From positions 35,222,437 to 35,286,436 of the forward strand of contig NC_092672.1 in NCBI RefSeq assembly GCF_964355755.1: a DNA stretch of 64,000 bases. Direction: 5' to 3'. Source of the stretch: Antedon mediterranea (lineage: Eukaryota; Animalia; Echinodermata). Positions within the stretch are counted from its first letter, which is position 1; each line of letters starts with the position of its first letter. A model generated the notes under the pieces. The model was given only the letters and a program-made list of their open reading frames with translations, was not told the DNA's origin and did not search any database. The translations under genes and the position numbers were made by a program. This document shows positions 6,259 to 40,611 of the stretch, one piece after another.

Positions 6259-8760
6259 ATGTCTCGAGTTGTTCGTGGACCAGCAGGGAATAATGAATGT
6301 AGAATTTATGTAGGCAATTTGCCTCCAGATATCCGTGAAAAAGACATCGAAGATATTTTTTACAAATATGGAGACATTGCCGATATTGATCTGAAGAACA
6401 AAAGAGGACCACCGTTCGCATTTGTTGAATTTCAAGATAAACGGTAAGATAATTAATAAAAAATACATGAATTGCATATTATATAGGGCCTACTTGTATA
6501 TAATTAGGTTCAATTTAATCTTCTATCTAGCTATTTATTGACTAGAATAAAGCTAGACTAGCTAGGCCTACATAACTTGCTTGTTGAATCTCCGATAAGC
6601 AAGTTTCAGCTGCCAGGTATGAAATGCCCAAATTCATGGCGCGCCACAAATGACAAATATCCAGTTTTGCAATGTTGCTTTAATTTTAAACCCCGTTTTA
6701 AACCAATTCATGTGGTCTTTCAAATCCTGCCAACTGCCACTTGAAGGGAGCCCTGAAATTATTAATTAGTAGTATTAATTAGTACTGAAATGTCCATATC
6801 TTTAATTCTTGTTTTCTATTCCAGAGATGCAGAAGATGCAGTCAATGCCAGAAACCGTTACGATTACGATGGTTACAGACTACGTGTGGAGTATCCGAGA
6901 GCAAGCCGAGGTGGTGGTGGTGGAGGCGGCGGAGGAGGGGGTTATGGAGGAGGACGAGGAGATGGTCCAGGAATGAGAGGTAATGATAGAGAGGGAGGAA
7001 GAGGGAGAGGTCCACCAGCAAGACGATCAAAATTCAGAGTTCTGGTGTCTGGTACGTAGAGTTACTGTATTTTGAATTTCCATAATTATTGCTATTTAAT
7101 ATGTACTGTATTATTACTTATTATCGTATAATAATTATGATTAATATAACAAAATTAATAATTTCAGGGCTCCCTTCAAGTGGCAGTTGGCAGGATTTGA
7201 AAGACCACATGCGTGAAGCTGGCGACGTTTGTTTTGCTGATGTTTTCCGAGACGGCACTGGTGTTGTTGAATTTGTCAGAGAAGAAGACATGAATTACGC
7301 CGCAAGAGAATTACATGACACAAAATTTAGATCACATGAGGTACTGTATGATAAAAGATTTAGTTTCCATCTTTTTTACAATAAAACGTCTACCTACCGT
7401 ATATTTCGGTGTATAAGTCGCACCTGTGTATAAGACGCACCCCCAACTGAGAGTAAAATATCGGTATTTTTTATATCGTCGATGTATAAGACGCACCTTA
7501 TATTTCATCAAAACAATGTTTTTTTAAATTGTAATCAATATTATTGTGATAATATATTTTGTTATATCTACAACGGCGTCCTTTATTTAGGTTTTTTCTT
7601 ACCTAGGCTCGGCCGCGCCCAGCCTCAACAAGTTCTTTCTAACTTGTTATTCATGAGTTTCGCCGCAACATCGAGTGCATGACCGTGTGTGAAACACGCA
7701 CGTGTGTGGGCTAGCCTCGCTCGATCATTTCGAGAGGGCGCACGTTTTCACGGACAATCGTATTCGATTAGTATCTATGTATCCGAGAAGTGTGTACGCT
7801 AGGTCCATGCTATAATCACCTGGAGAATATACTAGTCGAATACCGTACACCATGTGGCCACCAAAAGAAGGGCTTGCGCTTGGGGTACGGCGATCGTGCG
7901 TATAACTACTGTATAAATAAATACTATTCCAATCGTACGACGTAAACGTTTACAAATGAAATTTTATCGGAGCGCCATAATGAACAAATCTTTTCATCAT
8001 ATTTAGTATAACATCATGCTAAAATGACTTGAAAACTAGGCCTAGGCTAGGCAGAAGCAGGTTGCCGTTACGTTAGTTAGTTACTGTAGCTAGGCCTAGC
8101 CTACTCAGGCCTAGCAAACGAGGTGACGATAGCCTAGGCCTAGGCCTATGTACAATCTGTGTGGTGAGGCATTTATGTTCGGTGTATAAGATGCACCCTT
8201 AATTTGGAGGTCAAATTTGCGTGTCAAAAGTGCGACTTATACACCGAAATATACGGTATATGGCTGCGTGGTTAAGGAAGAGGCGCCGTATACCGTACCT
8301 AAAAAGCCAGTTCAGTATCGGCATGGGTTCACTCCTATTTCTGGTGGTGGAACCAGTCTTCTCGGATAAGGGATATAAACCGTAGGTCCAGTGTACAATG
8401 TTATTTGAGATGAGTAGGGAGTTACCCTGGTGAACTGGTTCACAAAATCACCTCTGCATCAGTGGGGATTAGCACCTATCTGATTGGACAGTCATTCATT
8501 TACTATTTACTAAAAAAATAAATAATAAAAATACTTGACATGCGAAAATTGTTATTTTTACACAGGGTGAAAATTCGTACATTAAAGTAAAAGCAGACCC
8601 AGTAGATATGAAAGGTGGTGGAGGGCGCCACAGCAGAAGTAGATCACGCAGCTTCTCTCCCCCGATTAGAAGTAGAAGACCACGTTCATCGTCGTATCAT
8701 CAAGGCCAGCAGCACAGATCAAGATCCAGTTCAAATTCTTCGTCAAGTTCCAGACGTTGA
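6259..8760 (+). CDS. SRSF1: SRSF1/SRSF9-like splicing factor, tandem copy B (4 coding exons)
   Basis: Exons 6259-6443, 6825-7051, 7168-7340, 8566-8760 (TGA). Same intron positions and phases as copy A, open frame throughout, [10 protein letters not shown] motif present. Confidence 0.95.
7397..8256. mobile_element. Non-autonomous Tc1/mariner-superfamily (pogo/Tc2-like) element in SRSF copy B intron 3
   Basis: Perfect 27-bp TIR CCGTATATTTCGGTGTATAAGTCGCAC, TA flanks, subterminal TGTATAAGACGCACC repeats, no transposase ORF. Confidence 0.85.
8261..8500 (+). mobile_element. tRNA-derived SINE, possibly Deu/Nin-domain type
   Basis: A-box-like TGGCTGCGTGGTTAAG and B-box-like GGTTCACTCC. Central CTCGGATAAG...AAACCGTAGGTCC and GAGTAGGGAGTTACCCTGGTG, the latter shared with 57730-57930. 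The domain assignment is from memory. Confidence 0.6.
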
Positions 8761-12319: not shown

Positions 12320-13262
<943 letters not shown>

Positions 13263-23490: not shown

Positions 23491-24463
23491 AAGATGATAA
23501 TACTGTATGTATATTATTATCAACATTTTCACATCACTTTGTAATGCTTAGATCTAATCATACCATATTATTGTAAACTTGTTGTATTACATGACTAGTC
23601 TGTGAGATCAAAGTATAACAATATAATGATGATCTTTGTAATTTTCTCATAAAATTATGATCAGTAATTAACAAAAGAAAAGATTCCTCTTTATATTATA
23701 TCATTTGATGGAACACTGATTTCAAGTGCAGATAATTTCTATTGTTGAACTTTAAGATGTCCTGTCATAATGTCAGTATACTATAATACAAATAATGAAT
23801 GTTTATTAGTGGATGGTACAAATAATGAACGATGAAAGGTTATATTCTGACCCACAATCGTCCAATAAAATGACAGGAATTTATTTAGGTGTTATTTAAA
23901 ATCTAATAGTGCAAATAAGTAACTATGTCAATTGCATATTAGAAGACTATCTCTAGTAAAGTGTTCTTTATTCACTTGAGTTTATTATAGGAATTCATTT
24001 TCCATTTTTTATTATTAATATTAAATGCATTAATGATTTCCAATTCTACTGTTTTTTTTTTAAAAAGCAAACATTATGGTAATATTTTAAAACCTTTCTG
24101 ACTGCATGAATTCACATGTTACATCAATAAATAAAAGATTCTTTATAAGAAACCAAACGGTTGTTATATCACTTTACTAATTCGTCAAGATGTACCGGTA
24201 ACAATGATGCAATATAATAATTAATATTGACCTGCGGATCCAGAGGTGGTGTCTAGAAATTTCAGATCTAAGATTTATCTGAGTTTTAGAACAACGTATT
24301 AATACATGATTGGGTTCATGTTCCACTCTGAACATGTTTTCATCAGGAGCTGTGCAGGCCGCCAATTTCGTATATTACAAAAAGCATTGAAAACAACGTG
24401 CGGCGCGCCGGCTGGGTAGAGGTTTGTTAAATTGAATTCATGTTTCGATTTATTAAGATAAAA

Positions 24464-26886
24464 ATGAGGCTTGACGATTTTGTATCACCTATGACTTTGA
24501 ACCTGTTCGTGAGTATGGGATGTGGAGTCATGCTAGGATGGTTTATGAAAGAAAAATACAACAAACAAATTAGTTTACAGAATGAAAATGCTAGGCCTTC
24601 AGAAACAGGAGCTGTCGGTAGAACCAATGCCTTGGTAAGTTGTCTTTTACGGCTTCGTGGATATAGTTATAGGCAGGCAGGCCTAGAGGGCTATTGTTAT
24701 TTGTAGTTTATTGTTTACATGATTTCTGTAGGTTGATACTGCAGGCGAGGGAGGTGGTGAACATAAGATGGTGCTTGTTGTCAGGACAGATTTGAAAATG
24801 GGAAAGGGAAAAGTTGCTGCACAGGTACGTAACATACACAATCAAAACATATAAAAAATATACTAAATAAACAGTTACCCATCTAGGCATATCTATAGTA
24901 TAATATAGTGCCTACAGATAGTTGATCATAGGCCTACTATTAAAATAATAGTATATGGTATCAACTTCAGACTCGGTGTGATTTTTTATTTATTATTGCA
25001 GAGAAATAAACATTCCCATGTTCCACTTTAAATGTGGTTTTGTTTTTAAAAAAGTATTTTCAATTCACTTTTTTGTATTTTACATTACAAATTGTGCAAC
25101 TTATTTTATACTGTATAAATATATTTAGTGCAGCCACGCAGCTGTAAACTGTTATCGTCACACACAACGAAATAATCCAGGTATGCTAAGAAAATGGGAA
25201 TCAAATGGCCAACCTAAGGTGGTTGTCAAGACAACAGATGAAGCGACATTGTGAGTGACATGGACGAAAAATTTAGTTGCCATGGTGATGTGTTGCTAAT
25301 CCTCGTTAAACTGTTGTTCTCATTTTTTACTAAAAAAAATAAGTTTTTATCTGAAATTAAAATTAGTCAAAAGATTCCAATTCTGCTCTACTTATATGCT
25401 ATTGGGTTCAAATTAGAACAATTTTGGGATTTCCCAAAATGTGATTAGTAATTCATGAAAACAGCAGTTTCAAGTTTAAGCTCTGTCTACACTATCAACC
25501 TTTATGTGACAAAAGTGTGATGTGCCCAAATATGGACGTGATGATGTCATATCACTACTGTATTTCAGCATATCACTACCATATTTGGGCACATCACACT
25601 TTTTTGTCACATAAAGTTTGATAGTGTAGACAGTGCTTAAGATTAACTGAGTAGGTTCAAGTTATTTTATTTTGATATATTTTACATTAGTGTTGTCACG
25701 CAGCTGTAGGATGCTATTCAGAACTTTTAGAGAGAGACGATGAAGATGACACGTTGGAATTGTGGGAAGAAAATGGCCAACCTAAAATAGTAGTAAAAGC
25801 CCCTGATGAAGAGACACTGTGAGTCCAAATTGACAGTGTCCCACATAAATTTTCCAAAATTATACTTTTTAAAACAAAAATGTTTTAAAATATTCATGAT
25901 TATTTTTCTTACCTGTTTTAGGGTGTTAGGTGAACTGTATGTGCCATTATTTAAAAGCTGTCCATCTGACAGTTAAGCTCTGTCTACACTATCAAAATTT
26001 ATGTGAAAAAAAAATTGTGATGTCATATCACTACCATATTTAAGCATATCACTACCATAAACTAGTTTGATAGTGTAGACAGAGCTCTAGAAACTATGAA
26101 CAGATTTAATGCTTATTTTGTTTTAAATTACAGAATCGCATTAGCGCAACATGCACAGTCAGTAGGCCTGACTTCATGTCTTATACAAGACGCAGGAAGA
26201 ACACAAATAGCGCCAGGCTCAAAAACAGTACTAGGTGTTGGTCCAGGTATAAAATAACTTTAATTTGAAATTCTCATAGTAGTTAGGCCCGATTTTTTCA
26301 ATCATACACACATTTATTCAGTTATTTGACAACAACTGGGGCCCACACTAGAAGCAGAAGCTTGTCTCATAAGAGCCCCTACAATACAAATATGACGAAA
26401 TACATAAAAAGAAAAACTGTATAAAACAGTAAACAATAAAATAAGTCAAAAACAAAATTTTTTGGTATATGGAAGCAAACCAGATTTAATTTAATTTAAT
26501 TAATTTTATTCATCCAAGAGAAATAATCATTAAAAGAATAAAATAAGATCTGCTTACAAAAGCAAAAACCCACACAAGCACGTGAAAAATGATATTAATT
26601 CTAGTTGATTTTTTTTCAGTTTAATAATAATAATAAATTTATTTGAAAATGAAAAACTTGATCACTTAATATAGTGTTTTTACCAAGGCCATTTTACTAT
26701 ACAAAACTACAGTATTTACAAAAACAAACAGTACTCCTATGTTAATGTTTGTTTAGATTTTAAATAAATTAATAATAATATTTTTATTTGCCAAAAAACA
26801 TGCATTAATATAATACTTTTTTTACTTCTTCTCCAGGTCCTGCTGAATTAATAAACAAAGTGACTGGTCACCTGAAATTATTTTGA
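24464..26886 (+). CDS. PTRH2: Peptidyl-tRNA hydrolase 2, mitochondrial (Pth2/Bit1), with alternative exon 3A/3B
   Basis: Exons 24464 (or in-frame ATG 24440)-24634, 24732-24824, [25129-25250 or 25691-25818], 26134-26246, 26837-26886. N-terminal TM anchor, then [44 protein letters not shown] and VTGHLKLF*. Confidence 0.95.
25129..25250 (+). CDS. PTRH2: PTRH2 alternative exon 3A (basic variant)
   Basis: TTTAG|...|GTGAGT, 122 nt, phase 0 to 2. [41 protein letters not shown]. Confidence 0.9.
25478..25638. mobile_element. MITE family 1 copy between PTRH2 exons 3A and 3B
   Basis: Family TIR. Ends ~52 nt before the 3B acceptor. Confidence 0.85.
25691..25818 (+). CDS. PTRH2: PTRH2 alternative exon 3B (acidic variant)
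   Basis: ATTAG|...|GTGAGT, 128 nt, phase 0 to 2. [43 protein letters not shown]. Confidence 0.85.
25975..26086. mobile_element. MITE family 1 copy (internally deleted) between PTRH2 exon 3B and exon 4
   Basis: Both family TIRs intact. Ends ~47 nt before the exon-4 acceptor. Confidence 0.85.
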
Positions 26887-37410: not shown

Positions 37411-38845
37411 TGAGGCATAATGCTATTGTACTGTACTGTGTGTGTGTGTGCATTTATTGTTAAATGCTTTGAACTCGTTGGTTGCAATGTAAATAATTAT
37501 TAAATTTATTGATACCCTATTCAAATGTTTAGTTGACATATTTGCTCATGACATTGTAATTGAAAATTGATATAATTAAAACCAACACAATCTATCGAAA
37601 CTGCCATTAATAAATCATAATATGTATCATGTTACATTGATTGATAGTAAGTGCCAACTCAGCATTTTATTAGTACCGTAGTGCTGACGACATTGTTGTC
37701 TTTGTAATTTGATACACTGTAATTACATTTAGTTTGAAAGTGTGATGTGCCCAAATATGGTAGTGATATGCCCAAATATAGTAGTGATATGACATCATGT
37801 CCATGGCACATCACATTTTGTTGTCGCATAGAGTTTGATAGTTTAGACAGAGTTTAAGATAAACAGTACCTGAATCAAGTGTTATGAATTGAATCAATAT
37901 TAGTAATTTTTATTTCAATACCCTGTTAAGGAAAAAATAATAATGTATTACTATCTTAGCTTAAAAGCAACAAAAAAAAAATGCCATGTAAGGTTGTAAT
38001 TTCATTAATTTTTTTTTTATTGTTTTTTTGTTTTATTTTATTTTTAAAACCAGAAACAACAGCAGAAACAAATCCGCCATACAGCTTGGTTTAACAGATA
38101 CAATACAATTACAACAACTCAGAAACACTTAAATTACGACGAAACAGATAAAGATTGGAATTAAAAATGTCAATATGGGGATGGGCCTGGACTAAACTAT
38201 TATAATATAAACTTAATCTACTGATGTAACCATTTTTTAGAACATTGACTCTACAAAAGGGAACACAAAGGATATTGTTGTTTCTTAAGTTACGGGCGGG
38301 AACACGAATACCGAAATTGGAGATAAAGTTGCAGTCAAAAATAGAATGAAGACATTTAAAAAGAAAAATAATTTGCTAATAAGTACAGTCATTCCTCAAT
38401 AGATTGAATAGCATTGAATGTTAATCATTGTGATTGCCATCCTACAGTATAAATTATCATTACAGTAGTATACAGGTATACAGGATTTCACAATTGTAAA
38501 TAGTTTTATATCTGTTTTCTTTCTTTTTGTTTTTCTTTTATATTTTATTTTTGTTGTAACTATGTTTACTGAACCACTTTGGAAATCAGTACATTTGTAT
38601 TGAAAGTGTATTTCAGTTTAAAGAAAGAACAAATAAATTAAAAAAAAAATAATACAGTATTAATATTTTTTTTTCTTTTTATTATTTTTAGGTTACAAAT
38701 AAAGTGAACTCATTTCGGAGCAATGCAGCCTGGCATAAACAGAAAGATTTTAATGATGAAGTACTTTGATGTTAAACTGAATTATTTTGTGTATTTAATA
38801 GAAAGATGAACAAGTAACATTTCTACATTTGAGAATATAAAAACA

Positions 38846-40611
38846 ATGCGAATGGCGCGTCACAGTAAAATGAGGACGTTGTTGACAGTGGCGCTGACTG
38901 CGGTAGTGACTATTATGATAACGCAGAATATGTGCGACGTTCCCGACGGTAAAGGGAAGATGGTTCCTAAGGAATCGGTGAAAACTATAGAGGATAGCGA
39001 TAATAAAGTTTATGAATATCACAAGGACATGCCGCTGATTTTTATCGGTGGAATGCCACGTAGTGGAACCACGTTAATGCGTGCAATGTTGGATGCTCAT
39101 CCTGATATACGTTGCGGAGAGGAGACGCGTCTTGTTCCTAGGTTACTCGGCATGCGTGTTCAATGGAAGAAATCAAAGAAAGAACAAACAAGACTTTTAG
39201 AAGCCGGTTTAACCGATACCGTCATTGATGATGCGTTGAGGGCGTTTATTTTAGAAATTATTGCAAAACATGGCGATCCTGCTCCGAGACTTTGCAATAA
39301 AGATCCTTTTACGCTTAAATCTATGGTATATCTTAGAACGCTGTTTCCAAACGCTCAGTACGTTTTTATGATACGCGATGGCCGAGCTACTGTTAATTCC
39401 ATAATATCACGCAAAGTGACGATATCCGGTTTTGATATAACGAGTTGGCGTGATTGCCTTAAGAAGTGGAACTCGGCCGTCGAAGCCATGCACAACCAGT
39501 GTATGAGTGTAGGCTCACGTTATTGTTTACCTGTCTACTATGAACAGTTAGTATTACATCCAGAAGAATGGATGAAAAAGATTTTAAAGTTTTTGAATAC
39601 TGATTTTGATGAATCGGTTTTGCACCATGAAAAACAAGTTGGGAAACCTGGTGGAATTAGCTTGTCAAAGTGAGTAATTATTATTAATCTTTCGATTTAT
39701 GACGACCGACGGCCAAACTATTTCACGTTGTTTCATTCTGCGCATGCACGTTGATACAGGTTTGATGGTTTCTAAGTTTAGACAACAAACGATGACACAT
39801 CGATTGACTTGACCTAGGTTGGTTGTCGCAAATGGGAAGCTCCCTAATGACACAGTATACATTAACTATGTTCACTTGGCTAATCAGCTAATTAGATTCG
39901 ACCCCTTCCTGCTATCCCTCTAGCCCAATTGTAACCATACAAGAGCAGTTATTCTGCATCCATCTTTCAAACTTCAGGCTCCCTTTTCATTACCCACTTT
40001 ACCATTTTAATCTAAAACATTTAAATAAACATTTTTAATATTACTGTGAAAACTTTACACTTTTTGTCATTTTTTAGTTCATTTATGTACATGTATCTTT
40101 TTAATCAAATTTGCTGACAACCGAAATTTCTTGGTTTTTAACGAAGAAAAACAAATATTATATTTTATACATTTTTCTTATTTTTTTTTCTTCTGAATTT
40201 AGAAAAGAACGATCAACAGATCAAGTTATAAAACCTGTAAATCTCGATGCACTAACGTCATGGGTTGGAAAAGTTCCGCATGACGTGCTTAAGGACATGG
40301 CTAGTATAGCACCCATGTTGTACACCCTAGGATACGACCCACATGCCAACCCACCAAATTACGGTAACCCCGATCAATTTGTACTAGAAAACACAAAAGA
40401 AATACATAGAAACGCACAAAAATACAAAGAAAAGTTAAAGGAAGTGATTGGGGATGAACCGCAAGAACCGGATGACGCCCCAAAAAAACGGAAAGACAAA
40501 CCACTACCACAGCGAATGCCAAATAGACCGCAAATGAGAGGGCGTCCTGATATAAGACGGCCCCCACCTCGTAGAGGAAACCTTCCCATTGCAAGAAATA
40601 AATTTGAATAA
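38846..40611 (+). CDS. TPST: Protein-tyrosine sulfotransferase (TPST1/2 family)
   Basis: Exons 38846-39669 and 40203-40611. Type II TM anchor, PAPS-binding motif [36 protein letters not shown], and [17 protein letters not shown] across the junction. Confidence 0.96.

Follow-up and report, generated by a model that had tools for sequence, protein, structure and literature searches.

Tandem, probably mutually exclusive third exons of the feather-star PTRH2 gene encode a family-typical and a strongly acidic version of one segment of peptidyl-tRNA hydrolase 2

Alternative splicing by way of tandem duplicated, mutually exclusive exons is well described; the protein core is kept, and the changes are mostly conservative (PMC9741552). 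Reversal of surface charge by such exons has been described for Drosophila CRMP-PA/PB, along with a K/E change in PKM (bioRxiv 10.1101/292813).

Among the Pth2 (PTRH2, Bit1) peptidyl-tRNA hydrolases, the human enzyme has a putative active site comprising K81, Q85, K115, D145 and T157, together with a network of Y94, W108 and Q113 (PMC10217894); according to a 2026 paper, this active site is still unconfirmed (PMC13088554). The human catalytic domain binds FKBP8 (PMC13088554), and the helix spanning residues 80-99 is considered to bind proteins (PMC7661711, PMC10217894). Yeast Pth2 works with Vms1 in a hydrolase-dependent role and at TOM in an anchor-dependent one, the latter being retained with the D174A substitution (PMC9892010), and clears D/E-rich peptidyl-tRNAs (PMC9718836). 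How Pth2 grips tRNA, and how the hydrolase role stands to the adaptor roles (Dsk2/TOM quality control, Bit1 signalling, mitofusin and FKBP8 binding), are unsettled matters. Here we describe a pair of alternative third exons in PTRH2 of the feather star Antedon mediterranea; the pair is real, under selection and unusual for the family.

The PTRH2 locus and the use of its third exons

The window analysed in this work, a 64-kb stretch of A. mediterranea DNA, encodes one PTRH2 gene, all introns of which are of the GT-AG type (Table 1). Joining exons 1, 2, 3A, 4 and 5 reproduces exactly the RefSeq protein XP_071944505.1 (isoform X2, 190 aa; P0004 in our protein set), and the same join with 3B in place of 3A reproduces exactly XP_071944504.1 (isoform X1, 192 aa; P0001). 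The translation of exon 3B is 100% identical to the Antedon entry, 'peptidyl-tRNA hydrolase 2, mitochondrial-like isoform X1', and 86% identical to isoform X1 of Anneissia japonica, and for exon 3A the corresponding identities, with isoform X2, are 100% (Antedon) and 80% (Anneissia; the entries of this species are XP_033119337.1 and XP_033119338.1). Given these matches to X1 and X2 in both species, the exon pair already exists as automatic RefSeq models. According to a preliminary description of this DNA, the human PTRH2 coding sequence lies in one exon; the word 'exon' does not occur in the available text of PMC7661711 and PMC11675358.

Exons 3A and 3B are homologous and adjoining, 122 and 128 nt long, and share a TAG acceptor, a GTGAGT donor and phase 0 to 2. 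As the preliminary description had claimed, inclusion of both exons gives a stop and skipping of both a frameshift; in the joined translations, the stop falls five codons into 3B and 222 nt upstream of the last junction, and the frameshift ahead of the DAGRTQ motif. The exon coordinates, translations, splice sites and phase given in that description all held when the sequence was rechecked, and the mutually exclusive architecture that it proposed is supported by the frame, the splice sites and the RefSeq isoforms X1 and X2. Elsewhere in the window, three of the 12 frames scanned have Pfam matches, namely an RRM domain (7086-7430), UPF0203, which we take to be the Mdm35/TRIAP1 family (12759-13109), and a sulfotransferase (38810-39670).

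Table 1. Coding exons of Antedon mediterranea PTRH2 and repeats next to exon 3B (positions in the 64-kb window)
Feature	Position	Strand	Description
Coding exon 1	24440..24634	+	N-terminal hydrophobic helix (predicted outer-membrane anchor) and linker; GT donor; helix 17-44 in model; joins exon 2 in run X1
Exon 2, constitutive	24732..24824	+	Strand 1, KMGKGK loop, first third of helix 1; K92 and Q96 correspond to human K81 and Q85
Exon 3A (isoform X2)	25129..25250	+	Family-typical rest of helix 1, helix 2, strand 2, start of helix 3; net charge +3
MITE-like palindromic repeat, 3A-3B intron	25476..25640	.	44-nt arms, 91% complementary; very high depth
Exon 3B (isoform X1)	25691..25818	+	Framework as in 3A, longer by two codons; acidic cluster E107-E123; net charge -10
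Second MITE-like copy, internally shorter, 3B-4 intron	25973..26086	.	One of 18 loci of the element in the window
Exon 4, constitutive	26134..26246	+	Helix 3, strand 3, DAGRTQ; D158 and T170 (X1 numbering) correspond to human D145 and T157
Last coding exon, to stop	26837..26886	+	Followed by 3' UTR; joined to exon 4 in run X1

Five public sequencing runs from two studies were listed, none of them recorded as RNA; one, run X1 (not to be confused with isoform X1), was guessed to be RNA ('RNA?', share 0.20) and was used as RNA evidence after spliced contigs had appeared among the four runs mapped. Contigs of run X1 are spliced between exons 1 and 2 and between exons 4 and 5, and a 185-nt contig on 3B has loose ends whose letters match the last part of exon 2 on one side and the first part of exon 4 on the other. 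The junction letters in this single run show 2-3B-4 splicing and thus the use of exon 3B in spliced RNA. The contig on 3A is 179 nt long, that is, exon length plus 57 nt, the same geometry as that of the 3B contig, and from this geometry, together with RefSeq isoform X2, we infer 2-3A-4 splicing. The depths of the two contigs (40.9 for 3A and 31.6 for 3B in run X1) give no isoform ratio. The RNA support thus consists of the contigs of one RNA-like run of unrecorded tissue, and contigs can miss rare forms with double inclusion or skipping; furthermore, run X1 may have fed the RefSeq models, so that the RNA and RefSeq lines of evidence need not be independent. Two variants of run X1 are listed in 3B, both synonymous, and a third difference is counted and not listed.

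The DNA-like runs X2 and X5 pass through the introns around 3B without loose ends, and both exons are covered in their intron context by DNA runs; no DNA contig spans the distance from 3A to 3B because the intervening repeat breaks the contigs. In the intron after 3B, runs X2 and X5 hold a contig that skips 31 nt (25869-25899), probably a deletion allele.

Mutually exclusive exons can be kept apart by steric exclusion, where the intron between the copies is very short, or by U2/U12 exclusion, where splice-site classes are mixed. With a 3A-3B intron of 440 nt and GTGAGT donors on both exons, neither mechanism applies here, and we infer that the reading frame together with nonsense-mediated decay is the simplest filter against double or no inclusion. 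Either 3A or 3B would be kept alone, each copy holding the frame only by itself, and transcripts that include both would be removed by nonsense-mediated decay, given the position of their stop upstream of the last junction.

The MITE-like palindrome that flanks 3B on both sides, up to ~180 nt long, is present at 16 more loci in the 64 kb (18 in total), and its summed depth reaches up to 10^6, compared to about 40. A further exclusion mechanism, of the docking/selector type, relies on conserved intronic pairings that compete with each other. Pairing of the two copies next to 3B across the exon is feasible (-59 and -55 kcal/mol) but weaker than the hairpin that the first copy forms by itself (-100). 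Looping-out of 3B driven by these elements is not claimed, the local hairpin being stronger and the element common in the window, and the copy in the 3A-3B intron is probably a bystander.

Selection, charge and origin of the exon pair

Between 3A and 3B, the 27 framework codons outside the variable middle show a pN of 0.16 and a pS of 0.58, and those of the middle, 13 in number, approach saturation (pN 0.71, pS 0.98). When neutral drift was simulated 3000 times up to the observed 50 differences in 120 nt, 602 of the resulting sequences were stop-free, a single one also kept the H, W, K and K residues, and none of the 3000 kept at least 21 identical residues. These sequence comparisons show that the framework likeness of 3A and 3B is more than chance and support purifying selection on both copies.

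Both isoforms are present in two crinoid families, Antedonidae (Antedon) and Comatulidae (Anneissia). Between the two species, 37 of 43 residues are identical in 3B, 33 of 41 in 3A and 50 of 53 in exons 4-5. Three of the six changes in 3B are D/E swaps, in an acidic run the alignment of which could slip, and Anneissia 3A has lost two basic residues relative to Antedon 3A. The preliminary description had held that its proposal would fall with an exon 3B that is never spliced in, or is lost or neutrally evolving in relatives; 3B is spliced, kept in Anneissia and under selection.

The charge counts of the preliminary description were confirmed by a recount: Antedon 3A has 6 K/R and 3 D/E (net +3), and 3B has 3 K/R and 13 D/E (net -10). 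In Anneissia, the net charges are 0 for 3A and -11 for 3B, with 13 D/E in 3B of both species. For the family background, 286 proteins were collected, 281 of them usable (P0211, P0213, P0229, P0236 and P0249 failed the anchor/length filter). The 277 non-crinoid proteins consist of 145 representatives (clusters at 50% identity) and 132 closer matches, mostly vertebrate; the family sets, ranked by how closely they resemble the 3B isoform, sample 5626 matches and do not amount to the whole family.

The net charge of the exon-3-equivalent segment in these 277 proteins ranges from -6 to +9, with a median of +1, and falls between -5 and +7 in 79 of 80 metagenome loci. Exon 3B lies 4.5 SD below the mean of the 145 representatives, among which the segment is at +3 or more in 38 and at 0 or below in 50. 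Three positions that are K/R in 62%, 56% and 60% of the representatives are occupied by S/A, E and E in 3B and by R, R and R/N in 3A. For the whole domain, a charge as low as that of 3B (-6, -7) is found in two of the 145 representatives. The nearest background cases to 3B, P0145 (Calicophoron daubneyi, -7) and P0228 (-6), are single Pth2 proteins with an acidic whole domain. The pair had been presented as a charge flip; the strong acidity of 3B stands in both species, but the flip is not symmetric, given that 3A is family-typical in charge. With 3A ordinary for the family and only 3B outlying, the flip is therefore better described as one ordinary exon and one outlier.

Each exon groups across both species in two trees, which places the duplication before the Antedon-Anneissia split; no divergence date was found in the literature. 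At 22-23 of 41 residues, the identity between exons 3A and 3B does not exceed that of either one with starfish (22-26). Exons 3A and 3B do not group together in either tree, and a single clade is not rejected (p-AU 0.17, with 41 columns and 16 rows). In both trees, 3B has a long stem followed by short tips (1.15 versus 0 and 0.16 in the first, 0.29 versus 0.04 and 0.08 in the second), rough values derived from 41 columns.

No isoform label is attached to the RefSeq entries retrieved for Acanthaster, Patiria, Apostichopus and Ptychodera, each of which has one ordinary segment; proteins of sea urchins, brittle stars and stalked crinoids are absent among the best 120 of 3107 matches. A motif scan of the 286 proteins found no exon-3 pair (six were flagged, two of them whole-stretch repeats), and no duplicated exon 3 was found in the 80 metagenome loci, mostly intron-free matches, where the sole double match is a pair of whole genes. 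This pair (L077, 196-573 and 563-1000) comes from a marine metagenome scaffold, on which two divergent Pth2 genes follow one another. A paper on Metacrinus mentions nothing relevant in its main text or in one supplement. The exon pair, a member of a well-known splicing class that is present as automatic RefSeq models, is so far confined to two feather stars.

Several of the collected proteins have features of their own. The Branchiostoma lanceolatum gene model CAH1233646.1 (P0169) lacks an equivalent of exon 2 and resumes at the Cys that starts exon 3, which suggests that the exon 2/3 boundary is old, with the same intron position in amphioxus. P0007 ends where exon 3 ends, and P0009 near the end of exon 4. 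The name of the Apostichopus protein PIK53396.1 (P0013) carries the words 'isoform X2', probably transferred from its best match, and another echinoderm may have annotated PTRH2 isoforms.

Predicted structure of the two isoforms

Both isoforms match Pfam family PF01981 with 161.6-165.6 bits (cut-off 23), and TIGR00283 and NF003314 are above cut-off in all four proteins. The equivalents of human K81, Q85, K115, D145 and T157 are all present in both isoforms, only that of K115 being located within exon 3; the residues of the Y94/W108/Q113 network are likewise identical, and all nine structurally or catalytically highlighted human residues are kept. In the model of the 3B isoform, helix 1 (90-111) is followed by a non-helical loop (112-116) and helix 2 (117-124), and the model matches human 1Q7S (E 2e-15, target TM 0.90-0.93), with the Pth2 alpha/beta fold of four helices around a sheet. 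The 3A model has the same order of elements, with a one-residue turn in place of the 112-116 loop. The N-terminal hydrophobic helix, a putative outer mitochondrial membrane anchor, is predicted in both isoforms.

Archaeal Pth2 forms a homodimer through helix 1. For the 3B isoform, a homodimer was predicted with a score of 0.80 (best of three controls, 0.00), with runs agreeing in at least 97% of contacts and a partner pLDDT of at least 86. The mark taken to indicate a dimer was reached by 21 of 30 microbial and 17 of 29 eukaryotic pairs (7 of 16 among animals), compared to none of 23 and none of 30 single chains, respectively. Only one of the seven pairs that have no older solved relative reached this mark, so the pass of the 3B dimer may reflect memory of solved Pth2 dimers; the score of the predicted dimer shows likeness to these solved dimers, not binding.

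The predicted 3B interface includes 24 residues, 13 of them from exon 3; four differ between the isoforms (C98/S, S106/R, L109/Q, I129/V), and none of the 13 acidic residues of 3B is in the listed interface. Like-with-like contacts at positions 93, 94, 97, 98, 101, 102 and 105 imply that, in the predicted dimer, the two copies of helix 1 run parallel, so that the two acidic tips would share one pole. In the models, the acidic cluster occupies the distal tip of helix 1, ~27 A from K92 as estimated from helix rise rather than as a measured distance, and the acidic pole of the dimer is predicted to sit opposite the putative catalytic lysines. The three mostly K/R positions noted above, which are S/A, E and E in 3B, are predicted to belong to this pole. 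The fold, the putative active site and the dimer core are all predicted to be intact in 3B. Residue 98 of isoform X1 (25694-25696), which is Cys in 3B and Ser in 3A of both species, meets its mate on the predicted two-fold axis; an inter-subunit disulfide is conceivable at this position, where Cys is common (34% of representatives).

Possible functions of the acidic isoform and comparison with known systems

On balance, it appears probable that the gene makes either an ordinary Pth2 (3A) or an acidic form that keeps the putative active site (3B), and that inclusion of 3B weakens the binding of tRNA or ribosomes or changes the partners of the protein. Judging from the models, 3B likely alters what the enzyme binds and not its chemistry. 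Under this scheme, 3B would render acidic a usually basic surface pole that lies within the span of the tRNA body, and the acidic pole would lower the affinity for tRNA or ribosomes or favour other protein partners. The 3B isoform would then be a catalytically intact, lower-affinity hydrolase, biased towards the adaptor and quality-control side of Pth2 function, and it could tune 3A within mixed dimers. Since no listed PDB match is titled as a Pth2-tRNA complex, contact between the basic pole and tRNA is itself conjectural. Counting against the basic-pole reading, the pole is only loosely kept, as indicated by the two basic residues missing from Anneissia 3A and by the 50 of 145 representatives with a net charge of zero or below in this segment; two of the 145 also match 3B in how low their whole-domain charge is. 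The D/E-rich peptidyl-tRNAs cleared by the yeast enzyme are substrates that an acidic pole would not favour. Different partners or a non-catalytic role for 3B, both raised in the preliminary description, are plausible.

More tentatively, crinoids might have split the two jobs of Pth2 by splicing, with 3A as the tRNA-recycling hydrolase and 3B as a tRNA-repelling but intact subunit that acts as a mitochondrial adaptor or as a damper of 3A in mixed dimers. If so, 3B would amount to a naturally occurring separation-of-function allele, one that maps the surface by which Pth2 proteins bind tRNA.

The isoforms could instead be equivalent, the hairpin of helices 1 and 2 being a tolerant surface on which 3B drifted to acidity early, and both exons persisting because some tissue, or the total dosage, requires each of them. 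This explanation fits the observations that the exon middle is the most variable part of the family, near saturation between 3A and 3B (pN 0.71), that the acidic residues avoid the predicted interface and lie at a distance from the putative active site, that the segment charge in the family spans -6 to +9, and that substitutions in human tandem exons are mostly conservative fine tuning (PMC9741552). Tolerance alone does not readily account for the distance of 3B from the family mean (4.5 SD) or for its D/E count, which stays at 13 in both species with D and E replacing each other, whereas the charge of 3A moves from +3 to 0, and we consider equivalence rather doubtful. It is improbable that the acidic loop is a regulatory tag (a protease or caspase site, a degron or a phosphorylation-like docking site) by which part of the enzyme pool, the 3B form, would become short-lived or switchable: the 3B model has a non-helical loop where 3A has a one-residue turn, and both species have the word DEDD in this loop, but 82% and 50% of shuffled versions of the acidic runs contain a DxxD word, and the residue following DEDD differs between the species. 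A caspase-type DxxD site was accordingly rejected as being at chance level.

A change in peptide specificity would have 3B acting on basic nascent chains, for example polylysine peptidyl-tRNA, and 3A on acidic ones; the preliminary description had named basic nascent peptides as an example of a different substrate preference. The argument is one of charge logic: given that yeast Pth2 clears D/E-rich peptidyl-tRNAs (PMC9718836), a basic and an acidic isoform could divide the substrate pool. The preference of 3B for basic peptides found no support, considering that the residues around the putative active site are unchanged and that the models place the acidic cluster and K92 at opposite ends of the helix, as well as the reported activity of the yeast enzyme, and we rate it as quite unlikely. 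Translational drop-off on the protein's own D/E run was also considered and rejected because N-terminal runs are the ones for which this effect has been reported (within 40 residues for ~80% of peptides; PMC9718836), and the run of 3B begins near residue 110. As for 3B being a degenerating copy with accidental splicing, or else an artefact of assembly or annotation, the reliance on a single RNA-like run and the lack of a DNA contig bridging 3A and 3B would allow it, but the junction letters, the contig depth near that of 3A (31.6 versus 40.9), the DNA runs over both exons in intron context, the retention in Anneissia and the selection tests make it hardly credible, and this reading is already largely refuted.

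The swapped segment corresponds to human residues 86-126, an interval that includes disease variants such as Y94N (PMC10217894). A naturally selected pair of proteins that differ only in this segment, with the putative catalytic residues fixed, offers a ready-made test in yeast pth2 mutants, in which both roles are separable. We found no description of alternative exons in a Pth2 in a search that covered mostly titles and the beginnings of abstracts, with thin coverage of subscription literature; lists in the supplements of bioRxiv 10.1101/292813 may bear on novelty. The available portions of PMC4929431, PMC6514570, PMC11202043, PMC11675358 and PMC11861897 contain nothing that alters the reading.

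The feather-star proteins resemble the rest of the Pth2/PTRH2/Bit1 family (PF01981, TIGR00283, NF003314; 1Q7S) in the equivalents of K81, Q85, H88, W108, K115, D145 and T157, the predicted fold and the N-terminal hydrophobic helix. They differ in that a single gene yields two versions of residues 97-139, one of which, 3B, is more acidic than the segment in any of the 277 other Pth2 examined and carries a two-residue insertion; in contrast, the starfish, sea cucumber and hemichordate entries retrieved have one basic or neutral version each.

As in the tandem duplicated, mutually exclusive exons of PKM1/PKM2, KHK, ACOX1 and TCF3, the PTRH2 exons are homologous and adjacent, the core residues are kept, and the variable residues are at the surface and near an oligomer interface (PMC9741552; bioRxiv 10.1101/292813). 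Unlike most human cases, which are conservative (PMC9741552), the PTRH2 pair shifts the net charge by 13 units in Antedon and 11 in Anneissia. That Pth2 can have a hydrolase-independent job next to its hydrolase-dependent one has a tested precedent in yeast (PMC9892010); there, one protein does both, whereas splicing in feather stars could, by analogy, bias the two jobs between isoforms.
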